Shown here piece after piece: positions 1,700 through 42,123 of a stretch of DNA of 64,000 nt. The notes below the pieces were generated by a model. The model was not told the origin of the DNA and searched no databases. It was given only the letters and a program-made list of their open reading frames with translations. Source of the stretch: Ruditapes philippinarum (taxonomy: Eukaryota); the NCBI RefSeq assembly GCF_026571515.1, contig NW_026860107.1, positions 62,001-126,000 on the forward strand, in the 5' to 3' direction. The position numbers and the translations under genes are program-made. Numbering within the stretch: the stretch's first letter is position 1; each line of letters starts with the position of its first letter.

Positions 1700-1786
1700 A
1701 AAAAAAATGAGTTGCCTTAACTGGGATTTGAACTCCAGACCTCTCGCTTCCTAAGCGAGCGCGCAAACCCCTCGGCCACGGTGAAG
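1700..1786 (-). ncRNA. tRNA-like Pol III cassette (pseudo-tRNA), not a canonical tRNA
   Basis: The minus strand reads A box TGGCCGAGGGG, a perfect 5 bp stem CTCGC-TTAGGAA-GCGAG, B box GAGTTCAAATCC, then oligo-T about 15 nt later. The acceptor stem does not pair. The cassette and its flank are homologous to 34087-34210. Confidence 0.55.
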
Positions 1787-4781
1787 TTATATGTTAACGG
1801 CCTGAAGAAAACCATATTGTTCTAAATTATTGTTTGTAACGACGCTTACTGTTGTTTAACACAGATGTAAAAAATCATGGAGTTTACTATAAGCATGTAT
1901 ATCTATAAAGAATAAAACAATATTAGAAATCTTCGATCATTCGGGAACTATTTTGCTTAAAAATGAATGCGCCTGTCATTTGACCATCTTTACGCAGTGA
2001 TCTCCCCTGAATTTTTCGGCGTTATTGCACATATAAAGGGATATAACCGCTTCAAAAAAGCGGACTACTTTCGGCATTTGCAATTAACAGCATCAGGGTC
2101 TGAAATTTCGCTACCATTATTTGTTTGGTCTGACGACCCAAACAAATAAAAAACAATACATTTTTGGTTAATTTTTAGTATTAGAAAGAAACTGTCATAA
2201 GACAATTGGATAATTTGTTCATATCCAAATCTATCATTTCCGTTGATGGTAGGCTTTTGTCACAATTATACAAACACAAACTCCTGAATTATCAATTGCA
2301 TGCAAAAATTACAATGCACAAATTGAAACTGAAAATGCAACATTAGATGATAGTAAAATAGTTAAACACAATATTTACAGGTTGAACACAGCTGGTTGAT
2401 ACAACATTGTAAGATGCATGAACAAATGACGTTATTTTAAAGTGTACAATGAAAACATTGTCAAATTGTTATGAATACATACACCTGTCAGCACGGTGTC
2501 ATTCATAATTGTTAAAAGTACACGAAAAAAAAGAGAAACGAAATTGCGTGTCCAATTTTTTTTGCTTCCGTTGCCTTAAATGTATTGTCCCATAATTGTT
2601 AGAAGGCGATTTCCGCTCAATTGAGTTTAGTTTCCGTTATGTCCGATTACTAACGAAATATAAAGAGAAAGGACACACAACATAAATATATGTAGATTGG
2701 GCCTAATTACTTTTTAAAAGCACAAATGGAAATGGACAAAGCAAATTATTTTCATTGTTGCTTTAATAAATTATATTTAATGGATATTAAGGCACAATGA
2801 AACTTTGTGATTAAAGGCAAAATTCACATACAACTTTCTGATTTGTTAATTTAAAAGACCTTAAATTCAAAATTCACATATGCAGTTAAAAATATTGCGA
2901 TTTATTTCTGCGACACAAATATAAGATGACGATTCAAAATTGAAATATCTATATCATTGTACAGAAGTGTGCAGCAAAGTTCTGTTTTCAACGGAATTGT
3001 TTTAATAGCTTTTATTCTCATTTTTATCAACCTTTGACTTCTACAATTTTATCTCATTCCCTGACAAGTCTCGAATCAAGATTTGATATTTATTATTTTA
3101 TTTCGTTTGCAATTACGAACAAGTTAGATAGCGAATAGTAAAGCACCAACTTAAAGAAGTGACGTCATAATTTATTTCGCAAATTACATCATTGATGTCC
3201 ACGTCAGATTATAGGTGAATTAAAGTGAATGTTGGATATTTGTTTCGTCTACTCAGTGGTAATTTTAATGGCAAATCATAAAATGAAATTGTAATTCTTG
3301 CATCTTTTTCTTTTGGCAGATAAAACAAGTTAAAATTTTCTATTTAGTTATTTATCAATAGTTTCATGTTTTCAATTATTAAAGTGTTAAGTTCACCGAA
3401 CATATAATTTTTATAAACATCTTGAGCATGCTTTTATTTGTTAATTTCTACGTTTATGTATTCCTGTTTGTGCATTTTGTATGTTAGAATGGTGGATAAG
3501 ATATTTAATTCTTTATGCCCCTGATATATATTATCAATGTTACAGCTTTCCCTCTGCATTTACTGTCTTCAAAAAATAGAAGTAAGGCGAAATTTGATTT
3601 ATAGGCACTTAGTTGGCTTATATTGAAATGATAACTTAATGGCAGTTAAATACTCATGTTACATATCGAACATATTGAAAAAAATGATGTTAGCTATTTG
3701 TAAATTTGAACAAATATGTGTTTTTAGTATGTTTTAGATGTTATAAGCATTATTTCTATTTCCCCTTTGTCTTGTCTCACTATGCATTAAATGTTTTGGT
3801 GAAAGATTACATGCCCAATTTTGAAAGGGTAAACTGTATAACAAAACTCTTGATCGAAAGAATACTGCGTTATTTATTTCAAGCAATATTTTACTTTTAA
3901 ATGCTAAGGCGGTTATGCGCTTTACAGTACATGAAATGAGGATATTTTAACGTTAAATTAAGTAGAACAAGTTTATTTCTAAGATCGCTGTGGTCTTTTT
4001 ATCAATTGCCGGCTGTTGATTTGTGTAATATTTGTAAAAATAAAAAATATCATATAACAAAACAATTATTTGAAACAGAACGACAAGTGTTCAATCATAA
4101 AGCTCTTTATGGTGTTGTATTACATAACCTTCGTTTGACATAAGACCCGTTATTCGTTATACAAGTATTCCTATTTTATAAAGCAATGGTAGTTAGTTTT
4201 TTAGCTTTGACAATAGAAGACATCTATTTATCAAAACAATGTTATACCCGTTTTCTCACATTTACAATTTGGGGAACGTTTTTAATAAAATGCTACTAGT
4301 AGTTAACAAAATAGGGAAATTCTCACAATCAGTCATTGATTTCAAACTTTGTAAATTCTGTAGGTTCTAGTGTGATCAATGCGAATGTTACATTTTGTAT
4401 GATATCAAGTTCAAATGTTGTGTTGTCAACGTTTATTTTTTTAATGTTTTTTTCATACTTTTTTCATCGACAACAAAAATATTGTAAATGAATTTAGAAC
4501 ATAATATTGATGTCTGATATGTTTCTTGTTACATACTGTATATAGCACACCAACCTTTATATTACATACTAAATATAATATTTTTTTCTGTCATCTTTAG
4601 TAAGTCCTATTCATACATACATGCCATGTTGCATGTTGTTGTTCTTACATATACATAAAGGTGGTACAAGTCAGAGCTCTTGTTGCTTTCCTGATTGTCG
4701 TATGTGAGTAATGTGTGAACAATTTTGCCATGTCGTTTCTCAGAAATCTTAAGTGTCTGCTTGCTATTGAAAAAAGGCAGT

Positions 4782-4825
4782 GATAGTTCCTTCTGTTGAT
4801 ACATGTATTAACAGAAGGAACTATC
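4782..4825. repeat. 44 bp near-perfect palindrome
   Basis: GATAGTTCCTTCTGTT-GATACATGTATT-AACAGAAGGAACTATC; one mismatched pair. Confidence 0.9.
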
Positions 4826-6674
4826 CAGACATACTTACAACTGTACTTCATACTGTAAGTTCTTTATCAGTGTCCAAAAATGTTAAAAGTACTTTAATGA
4901 TATTGAAAGCATTTCCCTTGTCGATTTGATAAATGACTTGTTAGTTGTAGGTGATGTGTCACAATATAGGAAATTCTCATGTGTAAGAAATGTCACAATA
5001 AATCAGTATAACTAGAAATGTAAACAATACGATCTATGAATAAATCATGACATAAAACTCAATTAAGCAAGTAGGATAGTTTTTATTCCAACAGAACGTG
5101 ACAGGACAAGGCTATTTCTCTTTTCGTCAAATTGTACTATATAAAGTACATCGTATATTCAAGAACATAAGTAAGGGTTCAACAAAATAGAGAAAATAAG
5201 AATCCCTAAAGAACATTTATGTTTCAAAGGACAAAATGCGATTAGCTTTGGCAAATAGTAAAAACATCAATATATTTCATCTTAATTGAAAATAGAGATT
5301 TAATGCAAATGGTTTTATAATGAAAATCCTGTCATTTAGTTATTCAGAAAGTTAGGTATAGATGTGCTGTTAATGATTGCTTAATCATGGCCGCTTTAAA
5401 GTAATTCGTTTTGTTTCAATGTAAACAAATTTTATGTATTTTTGACGTATACAACAAACATGCAGTCAAATACAAAGATTTTAATAAGAAAAATAACTTC
5501 ATTTCTGAATGTGTTGTGGCTTTTGTATCTTTTTTTATATTAATATGTAGATCTGCTGCATAAATTTTAAATTTAAATTTATGCTGCATTAAATAGAATT
5601 TTATAAACAAGCACTTAAATAAGATTCATACTCACTGAATGTCTGAAAAGTAATATAAACATAATGACGGTTGTTTTGGGTAAGGTATCTTTTAGGGAAT
5701 GGGGGTCTTTTATGTATTTGTTGGGGTGTTAATGTTGTTTATGTTTTTGAGTATGCGCTTTATATATTTCTTATCTCTACTGTTTTCCAGACTTTATTGT
5801 TTGTTTATATATTGTTATACATGTATTTGAACTACATGCTATATGACCTAAATTACATTTCATTTTCAGGGACTGACCTTTACTTAGACATGCCATTAAT
5901 GCATTTAAGTTAGATCAAATTATGGACAATACACTAAGCTGTTTCATCGTATGCCTATTTTATTTCAAAACTTTCAAATGACAGTAATTTTATTGTTTCT
6001 TTATCTTAAGCTTTGTATGTATGGATACATCGTGTTTAGTATTTCCTATATATATTAAGCTTAACATTATTTTAATGGCCTATAAGTTGAAAGCTCATTT
6101 AAAACAACAGATAGAGACAAACCAATGAAGAGAGAATACAACCCGTTCTTGTGTCTCGTGTTTGTCTCTGATACAATATTTATGACTGATTTACATGTAA
6201 CAGTTCCAACGTGGTGTGTTATGTAATACTTCATTATTTGAATAAAATAAACAAGAAGAAGAATTTTAAGAATGTTAAAAACAAAATATAAAACAATGCC
6301 AATATAATCATGTGTTTGCAACATGTTAATGTGCAATAATAAATACCAGGATGTAAATTCAAACACTAACTGGTTATTTAGAAATTATGCCGAGTGTATG
6401 TATGTTGTTGTTTTTATTATTTTGCCGGCGGTAAAATGTAGTAATGCAAACGTCGCATTAAATAAACCTTGCAAAGGAAATAAGGGATCTCCAAGGGTTT
6501 TAAAATTATGGATGTAATCAATTTCATTAAGCAAGTATTAGATTTGATCAATATCAAAGAACACTTTAGAATTACAAAAGACAAAAGCAATGAAAAAACA
6601 AATATGATTATAACAAAAGTAACAATCAGGAGGGTTAAAAGCTTGGTTAATATATCGGTCTAAAAGATCTTTCC

Positions 6675-8694
6675 CAAGGGACAGGACGTGAAGTGGTTGC
6701 ACACTTGGTTCAAGCGAGCGAATCGGTTGCAAACTTGACAAAATGTCGAACACGGCGTGATTATTTGAAACGGGCGAACGAATTTTTGCCAGGCAAGTGG
6801 TTTCTTTGTTATTTTGAAGTTCATTAGTATGTCTATTCCATAATGAAATATATATGCCACACTCGGTTTAAGGTTTCAGCATCCTAGATTCTGTTTTGAC
6901 GAAGTTATTGAAGATATAAACTGATCATGTAGATATTTTGAAATTTGACATGTGACTGTTCTGGTCGGTTTTCTCCTAATTTATTCGAATTTGTAAGTTT
7001 TGAACTGCATTTAACAATAACAAAATATGTTTCTGTCAATGCTGTACAAATGGTTTAGTTCGCAAGTCTGAAGATAACGTTCAATACACAAAAATATCTT
7101 GTTCAAGCACATTTTGGTTGCAGACTTATACTTCAAACATTTTTGGTTGCAAACTTTTGTGTCAATAATGTGGCATGCATATTTTAAGCGAGGAATTACT
7201 AATATTTTTTTTAAACAATTAGCAATATTAAGGCAATTATACCCGTTCATCTAATAAGAAATATATTAACAAATTGTGCATGCGTGCAGATATATCCTAA
7301 CACAGGGTCTTTCAAATAGATATATAACACAATATGCCAAATTGAAGTTCAGTTGTGTTTATCTTCATCATTTTTTTTCTCCTCGATATACTTCTTTTCT
7401 TTTTACAAAGTCTTAGGACTTTTTTTATATCTTGGCTTGACTAACTGTAAAGGAAAAGAAGAAGAAAATAGCAACAAACAGCTTTCATTATTGTTCTTTT
7501 TTGAGATTTGAAATAAATTTGATTATATATTAGATAAACACTATATTAACATTGACACAAGGGCATTATTCACATGTTTCTTTAAATTGTTCCTTATTAT
7601 TGACCAATCGAAACATCTTCCAAATTCCCTAACTCGAATAATGACTTTAAGTAGTTTTGTCACGTATCAGTCAATGTAAATAACCAATCGTATATCATTT
7701 ATATTATGATATAATAATCAAAATCATCTTTAGAATACCAATTGACATATGATGTACATCAAATCTGAAAAATTGTAAACAAACATGTCATTTTAACTTT
7801 TGGTTTGTAAAAATATTAAAGTACATTTACATAATTTATGTATAAAGCAACTGCTGATCATACGGAACAAACAAATTAACATTTCTTGTGGTTTTGATAA
7901 ACTTTAGATATTTTGCCGAGTAACATGGTATGTGTGCACATGTCCTTATGTTTATGATGAAAATAATTCACTTACATACAATAGTACTTTCACATTCTAT
8001 ATGCTATTATTCTGTATGCAGGCTTTTACTGGTGATTATAGTATTGAACCGAGAACCATGTAATTTGAAAACTGTTGTAAAAGAAGAAAGTATAAATAAC
8101 ATTTATAACAAAAACAAGTAACAAAACATAAATGTCAATAATTGCCATTGAAAATAGGTTTCTACACTCTTTTTGCAAAATTTTACTATGGATTTCAATA
8201 GAATAAGAATAAGTTTGCAACCAAAAATGCTTGAAGTATACGTTTGCAACCAAAATGTGCTTGAACAAGATATTTTTGTGTATTGAACGTTATCTTCGGA
8301 CTTGCGAACTAAACCATTTGTACAGCATTGACAGAAACACATTTTGTTATTGTTAAAAGCAGTTCAAGACTTACAAATTCGAATAAATTAGGTGAAAAAC
8401 CGACCAGAACAGTCATATGTCAAATTTCAAAATATCTTCATTATCAGTTTATATCTTCAATAACTTCGTCAAAACAGAATCTAGGATGCTGAAACCTTAA
8501 ACCGAGTGTGGCATATATATTTCATTATGGAATAGACATACTAATGAATTTCAAAATAACAAAGAAACCCACTTGCCTGGCAAAAATTCGTTCGCCCGTT
8601 TCAAAAAATCACGCCGTGTTCGACATTTTGTCAAGTTTGCAACCGATTCGCTCGCTTGAACCAAGTGTGCAACCACTTCACGTCCTGCCCCTTG
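6675..8694. mobile_element. Non-autonomous fold-back DNA transposon, ~480 bp TIRs, 5 bp TSD TTTCC
   Basis: 6675-7156 is the reverse complement of 8211-8694 with few mismatches; termini are CAAGGG...CCCTTG. TTTCC lies at 6670-6674 and 8695-8699. The ~1.05 kb AT-rich middle is non-coding. The mirrored ORFs 6660-6860(-) and 8508-8702(+) are a by-product of the TIRs. Confidence 0.9.
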
Positions 8695-11600
8695 TTTCCT
8701 GAAGCCCAATATTCGCATAGCAATTTGTCTGACTATAATTTGATTGTTTCAGATGAGGTTGTTTGTCTGACAAAAAGCCATGTAAAACATATGATTCTTC
8801 ATTTTTTAATGCGGGATTGACAAGCCAATCATCATGTAAAGTTTAAGGTTGGCTCGCTTTTATATGTTTTATTTTATTGCAAGATCAGCCCTTGTATTTA
8901 ATTTATTTATTGTTTTTTATGTTTAGTTTAATACACTTGAAAAAAGTTCTTTTTTTTTTAAATATTCATATTGCGTTGAAGATGTAACCGCCATCCTGAC
9001 ACTTTGCTCACTTCCATAACAAGCGCATTATTGTCCCTAATAAAGGGGATGGGTGTGTTAAGAATAACATTTATCTATACTTATATTTTAATGTACTTTA
9101 TCGTCTTAATATAATGAAAAGTCACACTTTACATTCATAATTACGTTATTCTAGTGTCAGAATGTTACTTTATGGAAAAACAGATGCTATTTTATATTGG
9201 TTTTTGCTTACAAAATGCAAAGTTCAAAACTACATAAATATAATGCTATACATGTTTTGAAAATAGTCAGCACATATGGACGATGAAAAATTTCTGCATA
9301 AAAAAAAAAACAAAATAATTTATATATTAATTATTTAAGTTACGACAATCGAAATAATATTACATTGACCACAATTTTCGACGAAACGGAAAAAATCATA
9401 TAATTAAGCAAATTATACCACACTTTGTTGAAATTGAAATACTGACATGTTGCTTAAAAATAGGATATAATAATTTGTTATCTATATTATTTCATTACTA
9501 TCATGAAATGATAATCCAATGATGGAACTGCAGTTATGATTCAGTATAAATTTTACCATTTGCAATCTACCACAACTTTAAAAAAGGCATTTGACCAAGG
9601 CATGTTTATGCAAATGTTTCCTTCAGTGTAACTTAACATATTGCAATTAATCATACCGAAGAACAAAATATGCGGCAATAATAAAAATAATTAATTAATT
9701 AACTTTTCAATGACTTTTCGTAGCACTTAACACTAACTGTTAAAATGAGCAATAGAGTAAAACCAACATACAAGAAATTTGCAGTGATATATAAACAATT
9801 TACTATTTCCAGCTAGAAAGTTACTGAATATGAACAATTACTACTTGAATTGTTCTTGATTTCGTATATCAGTTAAAATATCATGATGACATTTAATGCT
9901 TATTAAATAAGCACTTTCTCAAATATTTATTGCAAAACTTTTTTCGTAAGCAGTTTATTCTAATGTTCATCCTTTGCGTTCCATAATGTTCTTATCTTTT
10001 TGAGATAGCAAAATATGAATCGGTGACTGGTCTTTGTGTCATTCTTCACTGTCTTTGCCCTTAACAAAAATATGTTCTGAATACTAGTAATTCATGAAAC
10101 ACAAAAATTGTGTATTTATTTAATGTTCATCCCTTGTTTTAAATTCTACAACTTATTGTTTTGGAAATACAGCAACCAGTTTTTCTAACGATTATTACAT
10201 TTCCGTGTGTTATGTTCTTATGGAAAATAGAGGAAATATCACATATTGTGCCCTTTTATCAAGTTTTATTGAAGAACATGATCTTGTTCAGATTGGCTAG
10301 ATTATATGACAGAGGAACTAAGTGACCTTTCAAACTAATGGCATCAGAGACAATCCTGATGTCTTATCAATAATTCCGCGCATTGTTTTATCTTTTATTC
10401 CATTATCCAAGTGATCAGGAAGTACTCAAAACTAAATGACAAATGCACAAACCTACGAACACTCAACTGTTTAGCATCTAAATTAAAAACAAGGCATTAA
10501 GGATTGGCCGGCGTTAAAGACAAGAATCTAAGACATTTATGACATCTCATACTAACTTAACAAAACCAACAACAACGTTACAAAAATACAAATGATTGTA
10601 ACACGTCGATTGGTGATAATGAATGTAACATTTTTTTCTCACATTTATGTGTAAATGCCTAAAACCTTTGCATTTGGTTGATATTGAATAGGTGGTAGCA
10701 GGTAAATTATTATGTAGCTTTTTTTATCTGTCTGGTTTCTAATGTGTTATCATGTCTAGACACTGTTGAGATTTATGTTTATAAGTAAATGATGATTTAT
10801 TTTATACCATCACCTGAAAATCCTGAACAATGAATATTTTAGAGAATACAGCAAAATTATTTGTATGTCTAATATAAGAAAATAAGTCGATTAATAAATT
10901 TAAAAGTAATTCAAATTGCAAAACCTAAAACCTTACGAGCGTACATCCTAAGACACGATGAAAATATAGCAAATAAAAACAACATGCTTAAGCTAGACAT
11001 CTATATTCTCATTTTACATTTAAGTTTAAAGAAAACAGAATGACTTTCTTAAACGTTGTAAATCATCTTGCTTGCAACAGATTTGTTAATGCAGCGTTTC
11101 ATCATTACAATCGGAGGCTTGTAACCTTCACATCTGCGGATGATTCTAAATTCAAAATTTCCCAATTTCATGTTTAAATACTGCTTAAGCCGGTGCTAGG
11201 GGGCGTGGACAGCAGCATGCATTTTCCAGTGCTGTCCATGAACAGGATTAATCAAACCGAGCCTGCAACATTTTCAATTTTGCCGTTTTGGACTTCCTTA
11301 AGGGGTACTATTTCTCTGGTTAATTTCTTCTTCAGTTAACAATGATTCATATTTGAATAAGAGTCTTGATATTTATGTTATAATGATTCATTTTTCCTTG
11401 ATAAAGTGGATTGAAATTATTTGCTATATTAATCTTTTTATGCATTGAATAAATCCTGCTGGTACTTGACATTAAATTTGTAAATTCACATTGTTTTCAA
11501 GTAATTTAAATTTGAGTTTATGGACTGATATTTACATTCTCCGTACTCATGCAAAGCAAAGTTGTTATTGAAACTCACTATGTGTCAGGACATATTGCAG

Positions 11601-18877: not shown

Positions 18878-19205
18878 AAGGAGGATACTTTTTCGTTTTG
18901 AGAAGATATGCTATATATCACACTGAGAAGTGAGAAAGTTGCAATATTTTGTAGATAAATGTTGATATTTTCTCACTTTGCTGTGTAATATATAGCATTT
19001 TCAGAGAACAAGCAAGTTTTCTTCTTGTTCCTGTTTTATGCCTTATAAGGAACATAAGGGCAATTTGCGACTATTTTCATTAAAGCGCAGGGTAAAACAC
19101 GTCCAAAAGTATGACGTCAGATGTTCAACGGTTACGCAGATGATTCGCAAACAATGATAATTAAAGTTTGAAGTCATTATTGTGGAGTAACTTTCAACAA
19201 TTGTA
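18878..19205. mobile_element. Degenerate palindromic (Crypton-like) non-autonomous element; paralogous copy at ~28398-28710
   Basis: Starts GAGGATA followed by an imperfect ~100 bp hairpin (ATGCTATATATCACAC...GTGTAATATATAGCAT). The family call rests only on structural resemblance. Confidence 0.35.
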
Positions 19206-22252: not shown

Positions 22253-23897
22253 AATAAAACAATTTGATGATTAAACTTTGTAACTGGTTCTGCATTACGT
22301 TATATCTTACTAAATTGTACATGATATTAAAATATAACGATCAGTTTACATTTATGGTTTATATTGTGTACACATATTAATATCGTTTACAAATTTAATG
22401 TTCCTAAGGGGGATCATATAAATATCACACTACGCTGAGCGAGATGTGGCAAAAGAAACATATGGCATGTTATTTCAACTGAGACGTGAGGGTCATCTGG
22501 TTGTGTAATCATGTGATATAATGAATGATTAATATAGCAAATGAACCACGTGATGTATAACAAAATGTAGTTTCTTATAACTTAAATAAAACTCAATGAT
22601 AGAAAAAAATCTAAGAATTGTTGAAATGGAAAAAACAAACGCAAATTCATCATATGTTTTAAAAAAGTTTATGAATAATAATGTTTAACTTATCAAAATT
22701 AGGCTTTAAACCAGCTCGAGCTTTACTAGTATAATTATAAAAAAATAGTATGAATTGCATTTTAACCCATATTGACGTATCTAAAATATTATTAAACAAA
22801 TTATGAAAATTGAAAATATCAATTACTTTTTCACATAAATAACTGAGTGTACATGAAAAATTCGTTATGTCCATGCGCATGAGTTTACGAAAGAAGAAAA
22901 TTATTGTTGTACACCTTTAGATTAAAATTTAGACACGTATACCATTCTAAACTACTTTTTATCTTAATTAAGAGAGGTCATCGTAATTTTAATATGACCA
23001 ATACAATTTTTATTTATATTCAGTTCTTCCCTGTAAATTTTACAGGAAGTCCAACTGAATTTCGATTGCCTTCTGCCAAATTAAATGTCAAACTTTGACA
23101 AATAAATAGACCATAATGTTATTTTTTTATGTAAGCAAAACAGCCAATAAAAAAGTAACAAAGAAATTTTTCCAAAACAAATTTGCAAAGTTTACTCGGA
23201 TCCACAGAAAGGCTTTTGTATGCACAATGATAAAAGTATTTCGAAATACTAAAACACAAAAGCCCAAAACAAAAAATCTAGATATAAATCACATTTTTAA
23301 AGGGTGGCAAAACGCCTCCTTTATAGTTAAATAATGAAAGACAATAATCATAATTAACCTTCAGGCGACGTTTTCTTAGTATTGTCGTACAGGCCTGTAC
23401 TAATTATGGCGGTATATTCATATTCTAGTTGTTAATTTGTTAACAGGGAATATTTGTTGAGTTAAACATATCTTATAATCTATAGTATCATAGTTTTGGG
23501 GGCCTTTCTGTTGAAAACGTGTAAAGATATACTTAGCTGGAGTGCAGGTATTTAATATCCGCATACCAAAGCATACTCATTTATTGGCTCATTTTTCCTT
23601 GAGGACACTTATTGTGAAGACAGAGATAGAAATATCATAGTCAGCAGCCACTCATTGGTAACTGTTTTTTGGGGTTTCATATTGAGACAACAGGGAACGT
23701 GATTCTATTGTTGTCTATAATACAAAATAATCAAAACTTTCGGGAATCTGATTTATACTCAAGAGGCTACGTCACCTCGTACAAATCACATAGTCTCGTG
23801 TTTCGATGCTATTTCTAATACTTATTTGCTTTTTTTCTTGCTCTATATTAGTGTGTATGTAATAATTGTCAACAAATTAAGGGAGTAAATATACTAG

Positions 23898-25888: not shown

Positions 25889-26093
25889 ACTAGAGATACG
25901 AATCTTCTGACATACGATGTAGGTGAGAAAAAGTACACATTTAATGTTTAAAGTCAATTTCTGATGCAAAAAAGAGGTTAAAGTCAAATAACATTTCACT
26001 GCCCCAAACAACTTCAAAAGTTTTCTGAATTGGGACGCCGACGCCGTGGTAAGTAGAAAATATCTCCATATACTTAGTATAGTTGAGTAAAAA
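25889..26093 (-). mobile_element. Short degenerate Helentron-type element; paralogous copy at ~56706-56908
   Basis: The minus strand starts TTTTTACTCAACTATACTAAGTATATGGAG..., contains GGCGTCGGCGTC and ends CTCTAGT. Confidence 0.4.
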
Positions 26094-30844: not shown

Positions 30845-30900
30845 CTCTTATCGCTGGCATAACACATATATCTTAATATGGATACAAGAACTTTATATAA
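30845..30900 (+). promoter_or_regulatory. Putative proximal promoter of the C1qDC genes (GATA-type CTTATC plus TATATAA ~55 nt upstream of the ATG)
   Basis: CTCTTATCGCTGGCAT is conserved upstream of all five copies; TATATAA is present in copies 2-5 (TGTATAA in copy 1). The TSS is unknown. Confidence 0.3.
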
Positions 30901-30954
30901 TCGGCAAGTTAGTCTGCACCAGGCCACTGTTAGATAATATTTGACAATTTGAAG

Positions 30955-33900
30955 ATGCCAGTTAACTTCGTTGTTTCTATATTTCTAATTGTGTTCATCG
31001 TGGATGTATCATGCACAGTAAAAACAGATGATACAGAGATTCTGTCGATGATTAAAGAATTGAAAGACACAGGTATGCTATGTGACTTTACAGTTAATTG
31101 ATTAAAAAAATTATTTAACTCAATATTCTTTTTTCCCAAATCTTGCACATATCGATATCCTTTAATCTAAAATAAAGATTCAAAAATGTTATAAGTTTAA
31201 GATATCAACAACATTTATGATATACGTGATCTGAGACCAATTTGTTTTGCCATCAGCAAGAAAGAGAATGCAATCGAAATAAATTATGGAAAAGAAGATT
31301 TTAAGATGTGTTATATAATATCATTTACATCATATATTTTAGTGACGTCGCATGAGCATGCAATCCGATCATTGAAAGAGCGTGTAGCAGAACATGAAAA
31401 TGTTATCATAACACTTAAAGACAAAGACAAGCAACAACAGGACGCTATTAACTATCTCATGAACGAATTGCTATTTAAATCAATACAAAATGAGCTTGCA
31501 AACCCTTCAAAGGAACAAACACTGCGACAAACCAAAGAGCATAAAGAAATTTCTGACATATCAGACACATTACGCGATGAAAGTCAACTGAACATTCGGA
31601 AAGATGGTATAAGATCATCCAAATCCAAGTCTGAAATACTCTCAAACATAGCACACAACGCAGGTGAGAACAATGCACAGTTAACTTTGATACAGAAAGA
31701 TGTCAATTTAAAGTTAAGAGGCATGAAGATTTACAACATCTTCAATATTATCATATTTCTTCAACTTTTATATATATTGTTGTTAAGGCAAAATAATAAA
31801 GTTGGTTATAAAAAATTTAAGTAAACAAATGCTTTAAACAACGTCACAAAAAATACAAATTATTTCCACTTTAAAGGGGCTACACTGAGGTCTGACAGGT
31901 AATTTGGTGTCCAAAAAAAATGTAAACAAATTTCCTCACAAATCACAATATTATGACTAAAATAACAATAACTTACACTTTAACCAACCCTCTAACAACA
32001 ATTATGCTAGAAAATGCATTTTCACATTAGCTTTTGATGCAAAAATGAAAGTTGGTTTTTCCCAGACATGTACAGAAGTTACCCACAATTCATCGGGTAT
32101 AACTAAAATACGCAACGGACATTTTTTGGAACAACAGAGTAAACGGGGGTAAAAAAGTCTATTGATTTTTTCTCAACACTCTAACCTATCATGTTTATAT
32201 AACGAAGAAAAAACTGTATAAAGATAATCAGGTAGCAATTTCGATGTCTTTGAAAAAATCAAACGCCAGCGAAGCGGACATTTTTAGACAAAACGGAAAG
32301 ATATTATATACATGTACAATAATTTTCATTGACTTTTCAGTTTTCAATTTGAATATTCTAAGGCAAACATAATGCATCGGTGATATTTATACTATAACGA
32401 GCACAGTGTAATCACACTAATAAAAAGTATTTAACGCTATCTATAACGTATTTAAATCAAATACAGTTAATGACATGTCTCATTTGATTTGATTTGATTG
32501 TTTGTTTTTGGGATGGAGTGGGGGTTTCGTCACACAAAACTGTGTAGGTCATTTTGGCGACTCTTCAGTTTTACTGGTGGAGTAAGAACTCAGATGCCCC
32601 CTTTGCAAAATTGTTTCTGGCACAAACGGGCATCTGTGTATGTAATGAGTGACGTTTCGTAGGCTATCTTGATAGGATCGTACATACATGTTCCACACAC
32701 AATTACATCATGTTCATAACATAGGCAAAATTAAATGCACGTTCCCTGTTGTAACAATATGAAAACCCATAAAAAACCTATGAACCAGCTTCTGAATATG
32801 GCATTTCTATCGTTATTCCACAAAAAGCACCCCCCCCCCCCCAAAAAAAAAAAAAAGAATGAGAACATCAATGACCATGCTCTGGAGTGTTGGGAACTAT
32901 TACCTGCACTCCAGTTACGCAATGTGCATGTATATGAATGACACGTTTTCAACAGAAAAGTCTTCAAACTATGATACAATAAATGTTGACGATTCTATTA
33001 GAAACTTGTTTAGAATTTAATGATTTTTCGGTGAAAACGATATCGTTTACTTGTACTACAGATAAGATCAAAGTGCTGAAGGCACTGAAGAAAAAACCGG
33101 ATAAACTAACACATTTTCACTCCAGTTTCACAGGTAATTAATTTTATATGTCGCGGTTTACATCTTAATATCAGGTAACCTTTTGCTTTTTGTGACTTTT
33201 GTTTTTGAATATAATCTATACGAGTAAAAATAAAACCCTCTTTTTATTGGCAAATAATTTAATAAGTAGCATCCCCGATTTCTCTTTCATAAATTGGCTT
33301 TAGCAAATTCTTTTCTATTCAAATATTAAGAACATTCTGTCAGTGACGTGTCTTCTACTTGAAATCTTCCTGGTGTGTATTTTTCAGGTAACAGGAAGAA
33401 AAATGACAATCTGTTTCGTATCTTTTCGGTAACAGGAAGAAAATGACAGTCTGTTTTCATTTGATCATGACTTGTGAAAAATTATGTTTTCTGAACCAAT
33501 TTATCCTGCCGATAAAGATTTTGCAAGCAATCTGGTGGTTTATGTTCTAGTGCTTACCCTTAGTATTTAATTCCAAAGAACATTTCCTAGAAGACCTTTA
33601 ACGTTTGATTACGGTATAATCACTATAACCGAAATACTTAGGCCTGTTACTGTGAAAATTTTTCGTTCATGTGTTTTAAAATACTTCAGTAGCTCTATAA
33701 ATTTTTCAAAAACGATATCCAGTATTTCCGAAACAATTTACAAAGGCTTTTAATACACAATCTTATAAATCTTAAAGTATTACGAGAACCACCCACCTAA
33801 TCTCCAGAACATACATACGAAAAACAAGATAAATCAAAAAGGCTGCAAGCTCTGTGGTATTTTTCTGATCTTTGCAATCTAAATCGCACTGTATAAACTG

Positions 33901-36900
33901 TATTATTTTCCTGTATAAGTTTATTTTTATGTACTTATAATTCTTCTTGCTTGGTACCAGAGTTTGATACATATGGAATTTTGCATGACTAGAGTTGCAT
34001 CAAAAATCATTTATGTTCATTTTCATGACAGCCCACACTTTATCCTTGCATATCGTGGCTGTTTCCATAAAACAAAGAAACTTTATAAAAAATAATTGCA
34101 TTGAATTGGATTTGAACCCCAGACACACTAAACGAGCGCGTTACCCTTTGCACCACGGAGAAGATATACGAACAATGCCTGAATAAAATCAAGTGATACT
34201 AAATTTAGATTTTCCATTGCATTTCGGGCTAATTTCGAGGTTTTTTGTTTCAAGATAAACCTGTTGTTTAACATTTGATGTTAATAATTTAACAAAAACT
34301 CTTCTCGCCAAAACAGTCCGACATGTATATATTCCACTACTCGCCAGTCAGATTTATTTATGAAATACGCTCTCGACATCGCTTAAAATAGCATTTTCAT
34401 CCACATGACCAAGCAACACAGGACCACGGCTAAAGTATCAATGAAAAATTTAATTTTTCAGGCTTTCAAGTGGTAAATATAAAAGACTAAAAAAAAAAGG
34501 AAAAAAAGGAAGAAAGAAGAGACAAAAGTAGAGAAAAGTAAAGGTTTTAGTGCTATAAAGCAAGAAAAGCAGGGTTCTCTTCCTAACTTTTTATGCAATG
34601 AAATGCATCCGATCAATATTTAGCCGTTGCAGTTTTTGAAACAAGTCACTCGTGTTTTTCAAAATCGTCGGGAAATGAACCTGACCTTTTTTATCAAAAT
34701 ATTTACAAAACTATTAACAATGGGAGTATGCCATGATAAACAGGCTATAAGGAGTAAAAACAATGGTTAAGATATGCATTGCCCTTTCCCAAGTTTGTAT
34801 ACCGTCTAGGAGTTGGAAGTAATTATAGAATATAGTTTCAGCAATGGTTGTTGTATGAGGTGAGGTTAATAATTAATATTCTTACTGAATTCTTAAAGTT
34901 ACTTTTACTTACCTGCCCTTCACAATTGTCTTGCAAGTATCATGATTTTGTTTGTTTCGTTAAATTTGAAAGAAAGTTAGGGTTTAAAAAAGAACAACTA
35001 TATAATCAGTTTTTAAGTTTATTTCACTAGTCCCGACAATAACCTGCTGTGGAAGCTTGACTGTGTCGGGGGGCTGCCGTCCTGTGAACGTTGGCGTCGC
35101 CTTGATTGTCTTTATTCCAGTTTTCCTTTTTTACTCTTATAACGCTCTCAATTTCTTTTTCCACCGAGAAGCTTCAAATATATTGTTAACATTAAAGCAC
35201 AGCTCAATTGACCCATCACTGGTACGGATGCCTTCCAATAAGAAAGAAATTTATCAGGATATCTGCTAAATCAAATAATGATAATAATAATATTAATAGA
35301 GCCAGATTGTAACTCTTTTCCGACCTTCTTGATAATGTTTACCATGTGCATGAAACAGTTTCAATTACCTATAGTTTTGAATGTCTAGATCAAAAACGTA
35401 GTAATCATCTCATCAACAAAGTTTACATCCAATGCGGATAAATATGCAAATATGTATGTAAAATGATAAAATATTTAAATTTCAGATCTATCTAGCAAAG
35501 AAGATCGATTTTTTTTTTCTTATAGAATTTTTTATTTTATGCACTAGACATACATAAGAATTATTAACTAATAAAGTTGAAGCCTAAATGTCCTATAATG
35601 AGACTGGATTCATTCTCTATTTAGCCTGTGCTTTCAGTGCTTTGATCAGAGTTAAAGAGAAATATCTGGAATAACATTCTGTGTGTGCGTGTGATTTTTT
35701 ATGCTTACAATACTCAAGTTCATGTTCGTTGTATAAAAGGTATTATTTTTTTTTAAGTTTTTTTTTTCCTGAACGGGTGTCAGATAAACCAAAGTGACCT
35801 TTGAAATAGGACCCATTACACTGATTGACAAAATTTTCTAAGCCTAGATATCATGATATTTTAACCATTACAAAGTTAATACATACTATTTAACAATTAC
35901 ACGAAAGCTCTCAAATAAACATAGAATATTGGTAAAATTTGTGTTATACTATGTCAGTTTTCAACTCCGTACGTTTAGCTAAATTCATCATTGTAATGGA
36001 GAAAAAAACATGATTACAACAATGTAATGCTTTAAATATATTGAAATTGCTTTTGAAAGATTTTTCTCACAAGAACATATGTGAACAACAAGAAATTTAA
36101 CAAACAAACCCATAATTTGCTTTAAAATTTATGGATTGTTGGTATATTCCACTTTCGCACTTTCGTTGCTGCCGATACACAAAAAATTCTCCGTTTCGCT
36201 TTTTAGTCATCCCGATAATCATCACGTGACCGTTGTTTTTATTCAGATTTGCAAGCTGAAAGGTGTTTAAACGCTTTTCCCACAAAATTGGAGAAAATAT
36301 GTATTTCAAACGACTTGCCAATCCAAAGAACACATATCAATGTATCACTGATTCTGTTTGAATGTCCCTAACACGCAGGTAACAAAAAATTATCGGTTCG
36401 TGAAATTTTACTTTTTTTTGTGACATTCGGCCGTACCTCAGTGGAGTACCTTTAACTTCAGACGATTTGAGGCCCAGCAGACAATCTATACATCCAAACA
36501 TCGCTTTTCAGGCAGTACTTAGTGTAACCACACTCACAAATGTTGGGCTGCATCAGAAGATTGTGTATGACTCTGTTAACCTAAATCTTGGCGGCGGCTA
36601 TCATCACCTTTCAGGCATCTTCATTGCCCCTGTTTCTGGCATATATATGTTTTGTACATCTGTATTATCAGAATATCATGCCTATATTGAAGTTGGAATA
36701 ATAAAAAATGGTAATCAGCTAGCCGGTGCTTATGCAAAATCTGGTGGGCAATCTACCTATGACCAGGGGGCTGCTTCTGTTGCCATGCAATTAAATATCG
36801 GTGACGAAGTTTGGGTTGAAAATCGTTGGCCAGCAGACGCACAAATACGTGGTCAAGGTTTGCATACAAGTTTTACTGGTGTTCTTGTTGTGCCAATGTG

Positions 36901-36901
36901 A
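30955..36901 (+). CDS. Secreted coiled-coil C1q domain-containing protein, copy 2 (292 aa); intron 2 carries a 4.6 kb transposon
   Basis: Exons 30955-31072, 31343-31663 and 36462-36901 (879 nt, GT-AG, phase 1/1, no stops). Confidence 0.85.
32480..32670 (-). mobile_element. Degenerate 3' half of the tRNA-SINE family seen at 58862
   Basis: Aligns to the reverse complement of 58975-59136 (e.g. TTTACTGGTGGAG, TAGGTCAT, GGCAC..ACGGGCA). Confidence 0.7.
34087..34163 (-). ncRNA. tRNA-like Pol III cassette inside the Kolobok-type element
   Basis: Minus strand: A-box-like TGGTGCAAAGGGT, B box GGTTCAAATCC, then a T6 run. Homologous to 1700-1786 but with a deletion in the anticodon arm. Confidence 0.5.
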
Positions 36902-38146
36902 AATGAAACAATTAGATGATTAAACTTTGTTACTGGTTCTGAATTTTGTTATATCTTACTAAATTGTACATGATTTTAATATATAACGATAAACGAGCTC
37001 CTCCCTTTACATTAATGGTTTATATTTGTGTACACAGAATAATATGGTTTACAAATTGAATGTTCCTTAGGGGGGGTCATATAAATATCACACCACGCTT
37101 AGCGAGATATGGCAAAAGGAACATATGACATGTTATTTCAACTGAGATCTGAGGGTCATTTGGTTGTGTAATCATGTGATATTATGATTATTATAGCAAA
37201 TGAACCACGTGATGTATAACAAAATTTAGTTTCTTATAATTTAAATAAAACTCAATGATAGAAAAAAAATCTAAGAATTGTTAAAAATGGAAAACAAACA
37301 AACGCAAATTCATCATATGTTTAAAAAAAGTTTATGAATAAAACGTTTAACTTATCAAAATTAGGCTTTGAACCAGATCGAGCTTTACTAGTATAATTTC
37401 TGTTGAAAACGTGTATAGATATACATAACTGGAGTGCAGGTATTAGTTATCCGCATACCAAAGCATACCCATTTATTGGCTCATTTTTCCTTGAGGTCAC
37501 TTATTGTGAAGGCAGAGATAGAACTATCATATTTAGATGCTCATTCATTGGTTACCCTTTTCTGGGGTTTTATATTGAGAAAACAGGGAACGTTTTTATA
37601 TTGTTGCCTGATACAAAACATTAAAAAAACACGGCAATCTGATTAATACTCAGAGGCTACGCCCCTCGTACAAATCAGATACCCTTGTGTTTCGATGCTC
37701 TTTCTATTACTTTTATATCTTTTCTTGCTCTTTACTAATGTGTATGTAATTGTCAACATATTTAGGAAGTAAATATACTAGTATATGATGTTGGAAAAGA
37801 ATGACCATAATTATATCAGACATATCTGAAGTCTGCCTTTCATATATAATCAAAAAAGAACTGTATTGTAATAGGTGATATATAAAATTACTCGTGCTGT
37901 AGAATTGAACATACATGTATAATGGAATTTGAGGAAAAGGAATTATATGACAGCAATTTACTGAAATACAGATTAACATTGCAAAGGCTTTATTCAAAGC
38001 TGACTCTGTCTTATTAGTAACGTTTTAAACTTATGACATCTGAGACAATCCTGATATTAAGTCAATAATACCACACATTTCTTATCTTTCATTCCATGAT
38101 CTGTTGTAAACATTAACATTAATAAAATAAACATTAATACCCTTAC

Positions 38147-41100
38147 CTTCTCTTTCTGCTTCCTGTCACGTTCCTCTATACGTTTTTGTTTCCTCTCATT
38201 CTTCAGTTCTTCTTCTTTCTTCTTCTTAGCTTCCCTTTCTTCCTTCTCTTTCAGTCTTTTATTTTTCCTCTCAATTCATCATCGACTTATTTCTGCTTTC
38301 TTTTTCTTTCTAATTCATTTTTTCTCTTCTCTGATACTTCCTTCTTCTTAGCGGCTAGGTCCTCTTTTTCCTACATAAATAGGAATTGAAAATTAGTATA
38401 ACTTGTATATTGGGATATTTTGTTACAAAACATGTTTGCTATCGTTCTTTACTGTTAAGATACGAATATTCACAAAAAAAATGCATACTTAAGCATAGAA
38501 ATGATTACAAAAATCTAGATAATTCAACTTTTCTGGAAAATATATCGCAATAAGATAAAATTTCGTGATATGTACCTTCAATTACTCATAAATTAAAAAT
38601 GGGTTACGATATATGTTTTGAAATGTTTTTAAATTATCGCAATGACAGTTATGTATACGACATGCAGTCGTATTACTACCATAGCGTTTATAGTTAATCG
38701 AGAAACAACGCAGGCAAACCTTTAATTGATTCAACATTTCTTGGCCACTTATGAGCCTTCCCTCTGCTACCACTCTAGACTTTTTTGCTTGTGTGTTCTG
38801 TGGTTTAGTTGGCGGAGGTAGAAGAACATTTTCCAGAGACTCTGATATCATGCCTCTCCTTACCAATGGATTGGTAAGGAACGACCCACAGGTGCTACAT
38901 GTCCTTACCTCATCTACTTCTAAAAACAATGCAAATATTGTTAAAGTATTAAAAAATTATATATCAAATATTTACTGCTTTCTTGAAGTGTGTTTAGATA
39001 TTACGAAATATAAAAAGAATTACTTTATCCGATAGTTTCTTTTTTTTTGTTTATTTGTTTTTGTTGTTTTATTTTTTGTTTGTTTGGGGTTTTTTTTTTT
39101 GGCAGAAAAACTGCCTTACCGGTACTAATTAAATTTACAAACAAATGCATCGTACTCGGCAAGTTTTACCTTCAATAAATGTTGGCTTCACTATTTGCGT
39201 TTGATCAATGATAGAGGGGTTAAATGGACAAATCCCTGTTTTCGTGAAGCCGTCAGCTATAGTTGCAGGAGCGATTTTGTCCATTGCGTGCTTTAATAAA
39301 ACCGGGAATTTTGCCCTTCCTACGCTTACTGCAGTTTTTAGATATCCAAGACTTGACAGTGTTTTGGTGTAAGCGTCCTTCAAAGGTGATATACTCTGAA
39401 AGCATTTAACACATTCATCTAAAATGTTTGAAATTTAAAAGTTTCACATGTGTGCAGTTACAATAAACTTATCAATACTAAATGTATTATAAACGATAAT
39501 TTAGTTTGATGATTAGATTGTTTAGAACGCCCGGCACTCTTTTCTTAGCGAGATGTACATATTTTTGTTCGTACTGAATAGCAATTTAAGTAAAATATGT
39601 TACTAAAACATCAAATCATATTTCCCAAAGCAAATAGTGGTTACATAAACTTGTATATTACATGATTTTGTAAGCTGACTAATTATTACAAACTTACGTT
39701 CACGTCTAAAGGCTGAAGAATATGCGTGGAATGACCAGGGAGACCAAGAAGAACAATATTTTCAGCTATCGCCTTTTCAACTACTGGAATGCTAATATGA
39801 GAGTCGTGGTTATCCATGATAAGTAGGACGGGTCTTGTTCTGCCACAGTTTGGAACAAACACGCTGAAAAACCATTTTGTGAAAAGTTCACGGTCCATGT
39901 AGCCGTTTTCGCTGTGGCCAAAATACCATGACGACGGTACACTATCTGTGTAATTCTGGTGAGGTAATGAACCCTGTAATAGAAAGTACACGATAGAAAA
40001 CGTATCACTGTATATCAGTATAGAGTATAGTATACATGATAATTTTATACAGTTATATTGTACATGTAAATAGAATTATACTTTCTTCAAAGCGTTATCG
40101 CTAGCAAATGCATACTTAATAAAATACCTTGTAAATTATAAGAGGTGGTAGAAAGTGTCCATCTGCTGAGACACAATGATGTGCTGTCACGTGATCTGCT
40201 GAAGACGTCTTTCTTCTAAACAAATGCCCTCCACGAGGCCCGATTACTTTCGACCTAGGTGCCTCTTTTCCTGTTAATCCAGTTTCGTCACAATTGAAGA
40301 TCTAATAATAAAACATAACAGTTACTTAAATTATGTTTACACGGTATGCTTATTATAACGATCCGTTGTTGAATATTCTGTGTTACCTGTTTTTTCATAT
40401 TTCATATGAACATATTTTATGTATCAAATGCCATAATATATAAAAAGAGTAATATATGTAAAAGAGATAATTAGTTCGTTATAGAACGATTATTCTATAT
40501 AAGTGCCAACATAAACAATGCTTACTCTTTCTGGTTTGTTTTTCAAGTTGTATTTATCAAGAACAGACTTGAGAAGAGGAAAAAATTTGTCAAGCATCCT
40601 TTTAGATGACATGGATACTCGGGCATTGTCCATGTTTTCTGCCTTTCTTTGAGCCAAGTCTTGATGCCGCCCGAAAAACTTTGTGAACCAATCATCAGAG
40701 GGTCCTTTTTGTAGATTAAACAGTGACGTACGGCCTGAAAAATTGCAACAAATAACAGTACTTTAAACAGAACTATATTTTCATTGTACTTGAATATTGA
40801 TGTAAGAATTCTTTAAAATTCGTTCAAAATATGATTATGATAGACACATTATAATTGGTCGAGTAGATTCTAAAATTAAACCCGCAAATTAATCATGGAA
40901 CATTTTATATTACAAAACACACCTGATTGTATAACTATCTCTTGTATGTAACACCTGATCATAGCCCTGAAAAGTGGAAAGCCTTGATTCGCCATGTATA
41001 AGAGATACTGGACAAGGGAGTCCTCTTCGTGTTGTAGTTGCTGTCTTTCTGGTCCAGGTCTGTTTCCCGAGTACTTGTGTCTCACTTTGTCAGAGAGAGT

Positions 41101-41208
41101 TGATTTTGGTACTCCGAATATTCTAGCAGCCGCTGTAATTTTCATTTTTCTTTGACGCACAGCTGACAGAGCTGACGCTAGTTGATCTTCGGTGTATGTC
41201 TTTGGCAT
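38147..41208 (-). pseudogene. Multi-exon pogo/Fot-like transposase (psq-type HTH + CENP-B/Tc5-type HTH + DDE_1, DD35D); open for 484 codons, last exon damaged
   Basis: Exons 41208-40923, 40734-40526, 40301-40128, 39973-39698, 39395-39170, 38919-38720 and 38370-38147, all GT-AG and phase-consistent. Motifs AAARIFGVPKSTL, GPSDDWFTKFFGRH, IFNCDETG, LLIMDNHDSH, HSTHILQPLD, GFTKTGICPFNP. The K/E/R-rich exon 7 has TAA at 38289-38287 plus a frameshift. Confidence 0.88.
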
Positions 41209-42039
41209 TATAATACCTAAAACGTTTAACCAGTAATGTACAAGTAAAATGGTTTCCTGCGGGGAACATTTTTAATGATATAAAGATATTTCATTTAACT
41301 ATGTTCAACATTGTTTTGGGGGAGGGGAGTAATAAACGTTTGTGTCAGGAATATAGTTGACAATAATCGATCAATATAGAAGAAGGTCTTTGGAAATTGG
41401 TGACCGTTGATGACAGGAGAAGTTAGAATATAAAACTATTATTTCTTTTTAAGAAAATGATTTAATATGCCTACCATTTTATAAATAATTCCAAGCAAAA
41501 AAAAAATTAAATAAATAAAGTAAACACACAAGTTTACGCAGAAAATATCTCCATTTATGGCAGATGCCAGTACGAATATTTTAATTTTGTAGAGTTTCAG
41601 TTTAAACAATTTATTGTTTGTAAAATTTGAGATACATATATTAAAGAAACATTGATAATTTTCAAACACATCATTCAAGTTTTTCCACCTTAAACGGTAA
41701 AATAATTATATAACGTAATAGTTTTTTGTTCTTAATTAGGTGTAATTGTGGCAAATTCCCTAGAGGTAATTCCGTAACGTACCGACAAACGGTATTTAGC
41801 CAGTTTAGTTTTCGAAAAGGTCAATAAACCAATCGTGTAGGGTTTACAGATCACATGCTCCTCTATGTACCTAAAACAGGTCACGTGCTCCTCCATGCCT
41901 CAAAAGTGAAACGCGTACCAATACCCTGCGGTCTCCAGACCGCAGGGAGTAATAACAATTTTTATTTTGGAAATAAGATAAATTTTAAAGTTTGTAAAAC
42001 AAATTTTATCGCGAACAACTTGTATAAAAATAAAAAAGG

Positions 42040-42123
42040 AAAAAAAAAAGAAGGTTGAGCGTTGGTATCGAATCCGGGTCGCATGTGTACAACGCCAGTC
42101 ATCATACCTCTCGGCTACAGAAG
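42040..42123 (-). ncRNA. tRNA-like Pol III cassette in the 5' region of the pogo element
   Basis: Minus strand: A box TAGCCGAGAGGT, B-box-like GGATTCGATACC, long oligo-T about 14 nt downstream. Stems are degenerate. Confidence 0.45.

Follow-up and report, generated by a model that had tools for sequence, protein, structure and literature searches.

The DNA analysed here is a stretch of 64,000 nucleotides from Ruditapes philippinarum (assembly GCF_026571515.1, contig NW_026860107.1, positions 62,001 to 126,000), referred to throughout as the window. The window is AT-rich, with a GC content of 30.8%, and its parent assembly measures 1.41 Gb. It contains a cluster of genes encoding C1q domains and, on the minus strand, three short tRNA-like units that carry the signals of RNA polymerase III (Pol III) genes. 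An earlier note on this DNA had described three minus-strand units, each with an A box, a B box and an oligo-T terminator, and all three exist. The note took them to stand alone; we find instead that they are parts of larger elements, namely the non-coding elements HINE-1 and HINE-2 and one family of pogo transposons. The features on which the following analysis is based are these:

1503..2152, minus strand: HINE-1, a 650-bp non-coding element with Helentron/HINE anatomy, delimited by copy comparison, termini and a count of its 5' hairpin
1700..1785, minus strand: unit 1, a Pol III cassette that resembles tRNA-Pro(AGG), with its A box at 1778-1768, its B box at 1734-1724 and its T-run at 1707-1700
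1786..1805, minus strand: inner 5' flank of unit 1, hypermutable over family copies (2.9-3.0x)
1786..1895 (approximate limits), minus strand: upstream part of a ~200-bp module common to HINE-1 and HINE-2 (z 15.9)
31875..36451: Kolobok-type non-coding composite element (consensus 4.83 kb) with imperfect terminal inverted repeats (TIRs), AG..CT ends and TTAA on both sides
33832..34400, minus strand: HINE-2, nested in the Kolobok-type element (815 bp in consensus, at consensus positions 2050-2865)
34087..34162, minus strand: unit 2, a homologue of unit 1 (A box 34155-34145, B box 34118-34108, T-run starting at 34092)
38120..42627, minus strand: pogo-type DNA transposon (HTH_psq and DDE_1, Pfam matches above cut-off), split by an intron, its 3' end missing in the window
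41243..41955, minus strand: ~715-bp HINE-like repeat without a cassette, unrelated, which only the window copy carries, between its ATG and unit 3
42040..42124, minus strand: unit 3, located in the pogo leader: a tRNA-like Pol III cassette with its A box at 42117-42107, its B box at 42074-42064 and its T-run at 42049-42040
42125..42157, minus strand: 5' flank of unit 3, in which positions -20..-1 are hypermutable (7.2-7.5x) and a TATA-like run occupies 42150-42157 (-26 to -33)

A strict pattern of A box, B box and a run of four Ts (T4) has exactly three matches in the window, which are units 1, 2 and 3, and one match in 200 simulated windows of matched composition; the pattern was composed with the units already known. 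The box consensus is the general one for such genes, checked on genomic tRNA-Pro and tRNA-Arg genes. Each unit has the layout of a type-2 Pol III gene, with the A and B boxes at tRNA spacing (43-44 nt, or 36-37 nt in unit 2) and T4 following within 11-22 nt, the B box to T4 distance being 14-16 nt in units 1-3. The paired acceptor, anticodon and T stems of a functional tRNA gene, taken together, are not found in the units. In agreement with the earlier note, the acceptor stems are unpaired, with 0-2 of 7 Watson-Crick pairs in units 1-3 and in the pogo copies, compared with 7 of 7 in a genomic tRNA-Pro. The anticodon stem of unit 1 does pair, and its acceptor and T stems are broken. The tRNA scan that the note had called for gave a divided answer: ARAGORN at its default threshold reports unit 1 as a tRNA-Pro(AGG), whereas Rfam cmscan returns no tRNA (RF00005) at E<=1 and no other relevant family. 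Of 12 HINE loci submitted to ARAGORN, 7 had their cassette reported as a tRNA; the program's relaxed setting (-ps70) produced 193 calls, which we regard as noise.

Unit 1 lies within HINE-1. A search with positions 1300-2300, in which 40 of 3,812 candidates were scored, revealed a 650-bp repeat with sharp boundaries, represented by 39 further copies at 92-95% identity. The 5' end of the element (~2117-2152) consists of a T-run and a 13-bp subterminal inverted repeat (subTIR) that folds back onto an internal inverted repeat (IR), and the 3' end has a subTIR at 1525-1537, a short hairpin and a T-rich terminus. Exact matches to the 5' hairpin number 2,111 in the genome, indicating at least 2,111 copies. 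The 12-13-bp 5' hairpins of HINE-1 and HINE-2, with -10.5 and -11.7 kcal/mol (DNA parameters), correspond to the 5' subTIR/IR arrangement of HINEs. Both elements also have a 3' subTIR, accompanied in HINE-1 by a 5-bp hairpin of -2.6 kcal/mol and in HINE-2 by only a weak one; it lies ~25-35 bp from the end, compared with 38-60 bp in the mite HINEs described in the available text of PMC4067079. The flanks of 30 copies reveal a T-rich target and no longer duplication. Comparison of empty and filled sites for HINE-2 inside HINE-1 likewise shows TT on each side and nothing longer, and a 2-bp TT duplication would be indistinguishable from Ts borne by the element; the target is thus T-rich or TT, without a clear target site duplication (TSD). 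By anatomy, the host of units 1 and 2 is therefore of the rolling-circle (HINE) type and not, as previously supposed, a cut-and-paste element.

Unit 2 occupies a HINE-2 copy that is itself nested in a Kolobok-type element, and the earlier placement of this unit within a TTAA-flanked element of that type was correct, the element spanning 31875-36451. TTAA is present at both ends of 16 of the 17 two-ended copies (20 fetched), and both the duplication and the termini agree with the Kolobok signature, a TTAA TSD and 5'-RR..YY-3' termini (available text of PMC9587614). The consensus contains no open reading frame longer than 91 amino acids. The window copy is inserted at the acceptor end of a C1q-gene intron. 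The element is a non-coding mosaic: its positions 32557-32984 match, in inverted orientation, repeats at 23665, 37426, 50160-50428, 55343 and 59042 of the window. A ~0.6-kb TTAA-bounded MITE (miniature inverted-repeat transposable element) had also been proposed at 33776-34381. This proposal failed, as the 29 copies with which it was compared, one of them a likely allelic contig, all run past both of its supposed ends, and the sequence in question is the interior of the 4.83-kb element. The nested HINE-2 has its own 5' hairpin and 3' subterminal repeat, and the window copy has lost its HINE-2 5' end through a ~285-bp deletion. Free copies of HINE-2 exist as well, with 828 exact matches to the 5' end. 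Compared with them, the anticodon arm of unit 2 is shortened by a 7-nt deletion, its A-to-B distance being 36-37 instead of 43-44 nt. We considered the Kolobok-type element as a selected carrier of the cassette and ruled this out, since the cassette belongs to the nested HINE, which is also found free.

Unit 3 is located between the terminus (42627) and the ATG (41208) of a pogo element, just as the note had stated. Complete copies of this host family are ~5.0 kb long, with TIRs and TA flanks; three of six fetched copies have TIRs, two of them with TA at both ends and the third one base off. Together with the HTH_psq and DDE_1 domains, these features place the host among the pogo/Tigger elements. 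The unit 3 cassette has seven copies in the genome, 76-100% identical, and all seven lie in the leader of this one pogo family. It is oriented with the transposase strand and stands 3' of a GC-rich motif common to other pogo families, ~120 bp before the ATG when the window-specific insert is discounted. That insert, at 41243-41955, represents a third HINE-like family with a 5' hairpin, a T-rich target, no clear 3' hairpin and many copies at ~85%. Distant pogo families have short leader motifs before the ATG in common (the GC-rich, palindrome-like motif and two downstream words), and these are probably RNA polymerase II promoter elements. Every stem of unit 3 is broken, and its A-to-B distance of 43 nt and B-to-T4 distance of 14 nt are the same as those of tRNA-Pro; one consensus G of the B box is altered in the window copy. 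Scores of unit 3 against tRNA-Pro, Arg, Lys and Thr, the only isotypes compared, are near the shuffle maxima and do not point to an isotype. An assembled contig from a run presumed to be RNA enters the transposase frame at an acceptor just before the ATG, and the cassette would therefore lie in an intron of that transcript. The same spliced contig has an upstream exon, possibly from a host-gene fusion, which was not found in the 30 kb upstream or in the other pogo loci examined.

Within these hosts the cassette sits at a fixed position, as the earlier note had anticipated. It is present in 57 of 60 HINE-1 copies and 47 of 49 HINE-2 copies with both ends (104/109 together), and all seven matches to the pogo cassette lie within that family. 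For these counts, 70 HINE-1 and 70 HINE-2 copies were chosen by their 5' end only, and 60 and 49 of them had a 3' end in range; each set was made up of the first 30 copies in order and 40 from among the following 70, HINE-2's additional copies being hand-picked to favor rarer variants. The five two-ended copies without the cassette have internal deletions. One HINE-1 copy and one HINE-2 copy show a loss that extends almost exactly from the A box to the T-run, with intact flanks. The note's view that the units lack the context of a short interspersed nuclear element (SINE) is also supported: HINE-1 or HINE-2 is the location of each of the 50 B-box matches and 30 A-box matches sampled, in overlapping samples drawn from 2,246 and 1,178 matches across the genome. 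The anatomy of a SINE2, with a 5'-terminal head, a body, a poly(A) tail or one like that of a long interspersed nuclear element, and a TSD, is not seen, as the cassette occupies an internal position and terminates in a T-run of its own.

When the HINE cassettes were compared with genomic tRNA-Pro, Arg, Lys and Thr genes, the best match of both unit 1 and free HINE-2 was tRNA-Pro(AGG). Unit 1 is identical to it at 50 of 70 positions (~70%), with a score of 77, compared with 70 for tRNA-Arg(TCT) and a shuffle maximum of 44. The match continues through the 3' acceptor side and the trailer up to the terminator. No resemblance by eye was found between the 5' flanks of the cassettes and those of real tRNA-Pro genes, for which 23 flanks, taken from 14 of 75 pattern matches, were inspected. 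Units 1 and 2 are homologous, as had been proposed (68% over 127 bp, E 4e-5), but the homology extends over ~200 bp instead of the ~45 bp given in the note. At the family level, HINE-1 and HINE-2 have in common a module of ~200 bp that consists of 105-134 bp of upstream sequence and the cassette (z 15.9 and 22.0). No significant similarity exists between the two elements in their 5' and 3' parts (z -0.7 and 2.2), and the module is their sole significant common part. In 21 of the 70 HINE-1 copies, a HINE-2 is inserted directly upstream of the module, producing a 1.47-kb chimera that shows a route for module exchange. This two-cassette chimera forms a young, successful subfamily in which the 5' hairpin of the nested HINE-2 is damaged. 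The claim that three unrelated cut-and-paste elements each carry a module gives way to two independent captures, one behind HINE-1 and HINE-2 and one in a single pogo family.

Comparison of subfamilies reveals which parts of the cassette have been retained. The B box is intact in 13 of 15 subfamily consensuses, some of which are single copies, and in 5 of 6 pogo copies. Across the consensuses the acceptor and T stems are broken, while the A-to-B distance is 41-44 nt (36-37 nt in the Kolobok-nested cassette) and T4 lies at 11-22 nt; the corresponding distances in genomic tRNA-Pro are 43 and 14 nt. Judged from these consensus sequences, loss of the stems with retention of boxes, spacing and terminator is the pattern of a promoter and not that of an RNA structure. 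The anticodon stem pairs at 4-5 of 5 positions in most HINE consensuses, and all 11 canonical box invariants are intact in the consensuses of both HINE families. The HINE-1 B box has 0 internal-branch changes and 19 terminal changes (nominal p=0.033), and the pooled box invariants have 2 subfamily-level changes at 22 sites, compared with 53 at 130 other cassette sites. As a whole, the cassette changes faster than the element interior, the numbers of internal changes per site being 0.63 vs 0.34 and 0.87 vs 0.35. The expectation that the boxes would be better conserved than their flanks is therefore not borne out for the cassette as a unit, whereas the invariant positions are only suggestively constrained. 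These data are at most suggestive of selection on the boxes.

Active tRNA loci have an excess of divergence in the 20 bp upstream that peaks 12-15 nt before the gene and is higher at active genes (available text of PMC6130373). Raised counts at -20..-1 of the cassettes were noticed first, and the published 20-bp interval was then tested by counting copy-specific substitutions on trees from which the cassette zone had been left out, sites next to gaps being masked. We observed 20 substitutions against 2.8 expected in the pogo family (6 copies), 28 against 4.6 in the HINE-2A cassette nested in HINE-1 (21 copies), 66 against 21.7 in the main HINE-1 set (38 copies) and 22 against 10.4 in free HINE-2 (44 copies). 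The zone changes at ~2-7 times the rest-of-element rate, with a pooled peak at -13. Background windows never reach those ratios in pogo, nested HINE-2A or HINE-1, and do so in 10 of 537 overlapping windows in free HINE-2. The outer HINE-1 cassette of the same 21 chimeras, whose A box has two changes, shows no such excess (3 observed, 4.5 expected). Neither does the Kolobok-nested cassette of unit 2's lineage (3 observed, 6.0 expected; 29 copies), although the choice of these copies by similarity over the region and by an intact B box biases their counts downward. As a positive control, tandem tRNA-Arg genes (19 distinct units) did not give a clean profile, being variable throughout the spacer.

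Read in the simplest way, this excess, at the site described for active tRNA loci, makes it likely that Pol III/TFIIIB engaged the lineages of units 1 and 3 in the germ line; the evidence is indirect and applies to the families and not to the window copies. The lineage of unit 2 lacks the excess and is likely silent, and unit 2 itself is likely to be a silent passenger in the Kolobok-type element. That most cassette lineages are, or once were, engaged by Pol III seems to us quite probable. Reads of four sequencing runs aligned to HINE-1 show no spot with many molecule starts or ends, the run types being unsuited to an 85-nt RNA. Two long-RNA runs aligned to the pogo copy gave almost no depth anywhere and none over the cassette, their 150-nt reads being likewise unsuited to an RNA of that length. 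Two runs labelled RNA-Seq resemble proximity-ligation DNA libraries (GATC joints, unstranded, ~80% chimeric reads).

We tentatively favor a reading in which tRNA-type genes were captured by these elements, lost their fold and were kept as Pol III modules that act at the level of DNA and may help to hold the element open or unsilenced; our confidence in it falls somewhat short of even. tRNA genes in general can have barrier and open-chromatin roles, which form the basis of the last step of this reading. A HINE ancestor would have taken up a gene similar to tRNA-Pro(AGG), including the 3' trailer and terminator of that gene. The ~200-bp module then became common to two HINE families that differ in their termini, perhaps by exchange between nested elements or perhaps by retention from an old ancestor. 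One pogo family, in which the cassette lies upstream of the pre-ATG splice acceptor, would have gained its tRNA-like sequence independently. Local open chromatin or a barrier to silencing would, finally, aid transposase access or expression. Germ-line Pol III machinery on the cassettes could have left the mutation excess that is found at -17..-8, as transcription is proposed to do at tRNA loci in the available text of PMC6130373. A Pol III promoter is sensible in SINEs and TRIMp3 elements, which need an RNA intermediate, and since a DNA transposon needs none, a promoter that is kept and active would point to a role in opening chromatin or DNA. If kept and active, the cassettes would be a way for transposons to borrow the host's tRNA-gene machinery.

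Several observations weigh against this reading. The cassette is dispensable for related mobile elements: a ~650-bp pogo MITE with the same TIRs lacks it (7 copies read), as do 24 loci of other pogo families (in a loose scan in which several loci had no 5' region of their own) and the third HINE-like family. The Kolobok-type element and the chimera's outer cassette have spread without the footprint. The A and B boxes of HINE-2 show no constraint, the box-invariant test yields p=0.19 against terminal changes and p=0.44 over all internal branches, and the sparing of the boxes by shared deletions (0/10, compared with 8/73 for private ones) is not significant. The upstream half of the module is shared no less well than the boxes, a pattern that fits block transfer in the absence of selection, and part of the module is missing from HINE-2 subfamily H. 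When singletons alone are counted, a measure that saturates at hot sites, the excess persists in no more than two of five HINE sets, those of the Kolobok element set aside (ratios of 3.75x and 1.88x, and of 1.40, 1.26 and 0.97 in the remaining three). Transitions are not enriched (0.41 vs 0.48), unlike the C>T/G>A signature reported in the available text of PMC6130373. No autonomous Rep/Hel Helentron was found within 1.2-1.5 kb of 140 5' ends, no dedicated genome search having been made, and the Helentron label of HINE-1 therefore rests on structure.

The strongest competing explanation, itself doubtful but with real weight, is that the cassettes are active yet neutral cargo, captured by chance, with boxes that still fire because little time has passed and with no gain to the element. 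The rapid change of the cassette relative to the element interior, the non-significant tests of box selection and the mobility of cassette-free relatives are all consistent with it, as is the presence of further captured repeats in the Kolobok-type element. Neutral cargo accounts less readily for the 11 box invariants that remain intact in both HINE consensuses while the body is ~70% identical to tRNA-Pro; a calculation by hand gives 0.66^11 ~0.01, though the units were chosen for having boxes. The exact tRNA spacing of the pogo cassette, held despite the loss of all stems, and the two independent acquisitions within one genome also argue against it. Should the product be what matters, the ~85-nt tRNA-like RNA might serve as a decoy, a primer, an R-loop former or a source of small RNAs. 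The retention of a terminator 11-22 nt past the B box wherever that box is intact in a consensus would then be understandable, as would the well-paired anticodon stem of most HINE consensuses; however, the acceptor and T stems are broken, pogo keeps no stem, and the non-box body changes fastest, one HINE-2 subfamily having an 11-nt duplication there, so that we consider a functional product unlikely.

It is more unlikely still that all of the cassettes are silent relics and that the mutation excess arises from sequence context, gene conversion between subfamilies or alignment error. The weakness of the singleton-only test in large sets, the lack of a C>T excess and a tandem tRNA-Arg control that is too variable across its spacer speak for such an explanation. 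Nevertheless, the hot spot lies at the same distance from the A box in three sequences that differ from one another and is missing from two homologous cassettes, it involves many different alleles scattered over the tree, and it survives gap masking and the use of zone-excluding trees. Random insertion of truncated SINE heads or of pieces of Helenus long terminal repeats (LTRs) is very improbable. The D-arm side of the HINE cassette does resemble tRNA-Arg(TCT) as well (70 vs 77 for unit 1), this tRNA is the usual head of mollusc SINEs (available text of PMC4758252), and Helenus is present in bivalves (PMC10886601, available text). On the other hand, the sampled B-box and A-box matches (50/50 and 30/30) fall inside HINE-1 and HINE-2, the pogo cassette is found in pogo only, the 3' acceptor side and trailer track tRNA-Pro to the terminator, and no LTR pair, primer-binding site (PBS) or polypurine tract (PPT) was seen. 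A SINE donor that is now extinct retains some probability.

The closest known systems are the Helenus and Cassandra retro-elements, of which the HINE and pogo cassettes are not members. As described in the available text of PMC10886601, TRIMp3 elements (Helenus with a tRNA; Ajax and Cassandra with a 5S rRNA) are non-autonomous and carry a segment that stems from a small-RNA gene in which boxes A and B persist; their RNA is unlikely to be functional, and they are present in bivalves. They are LTR retro-elements, however, in which the promoter makes the transposition intermediate, whereas the hosts studied here are DNA transposons without an RNA intermediate, and the cassette is internal and single and has its own terminator. 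Two LTRs, a PBS, a PPT and a 4-bp TSD characterize Helenus and TRIMp3; judged by structure, no LTR pair or 4-bp TSD is present in our consensuses or flanks.

HINE-1 and HINE-2 resemble the HINE/DINE-1/HLE2 elements described in the available parts of PMC4067079, PMC7492417 (oyster Cg_HINE) and PMC11417382 in having a 5' subTIR with an internal IR, a 3' subTIR (with a short palindrome in HINE-1 and only a weak one in HINE-2), a T-rich target, no coding capacity and a high copy number. They differ from them in their tRNA-derived cassette and in that no microsatellite or central tandem repeat was seen. The word "tRNA" occurs 0 times in the main text of each of these three papers. Rolling-circle capture of a tRNA gene has been proposed for a tRNA-Cys cluster over annotated Helitrons in Arabidopsis (PMC10701932, available text), and according to its authors this would be the first non-coding RNA cargo of a Helitron. 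That case concerns a single local array of real tRNA genes in tandem, and the element was not confirmed by three Helitron finders, whereas the copies described here are dispersed in their thousands, with defined ends and a non-folding cassette. MER6, a Tc1/mariner MITE with a V-SINE body (PMC6887750, available text), likewise shows a Pol III-retroposon sequence spread by a TA-targeting DNA transposon; it has no tRNA-related head and hence, unlike the present cassettes, no A/B promoter. Dada elements (PMC8869645, available text; see also PMC3706591) are also DNA transposons linked to tRNA genes and the A box, but they insert into tRNA genes, whereas the tRNA-like unit here is cargo within the element. 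The tRNA loci with transcription-associated mutagenesis in PMC6130373 (available text) resemble the cassettes in their excess divergence over the 20 bp upstream; the cassettes differ in having neither purifying selection on the body nor a transition excess. The available text of PMC3845634, PMC10294476, PMC9679248, PMC8010984, PMC4758252 and PMC2817418 describes no such cassette-bearing element, and we found no clear description of HINE or pogo elements with Pol III cassettes in the literature, Repbase/Dfam entries and subscription papers being outside the search.

A broader proposal, doubtful though not without merit, is that DNA transposons of different classes (the rolling-circle HINEs and the cut-and-paste pogo elements) have captured tRNA genes on repeated occasions and retained them as functioning modules of Pol III promoter and terminator, a DNA-transposon counterpart to TRIMp3. 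Loading of host TFIIIC/TFIIIB would then serve as a portable anti-silencing or opening device, and thousands of live Pol III sites, together with germ-line mutation hot spots, would have been seeded genome-wide. The dispersed copies with a B box, at least 2,246 in number, could add many TFIIIC sites to the genome and many false tRNA-Pro annotations. Because the 5'-flank mutation excess would provide a sequence-only read-out of live cassette lineages and the two-cassette chimera a built-in control, the question is directly testable.

Other features of the window are distinct from these elements. From ~58869 onward on the plus strand, and at one other locus, there is a tRNA-headed SINE-like repeat in which the body continues and no terminator is nearby; it is distinct from units 1-3. 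The arms of a foldback at 6675-7156 and 8211-8694 are ~480 bp long, 96-98% complementary and ~1 kb apart. Positions 20130-63703 contain at least five tandem copies of the C1q-domain gene, each with a coiled-coil exon and a C1q exon, which are 84-95% alike.

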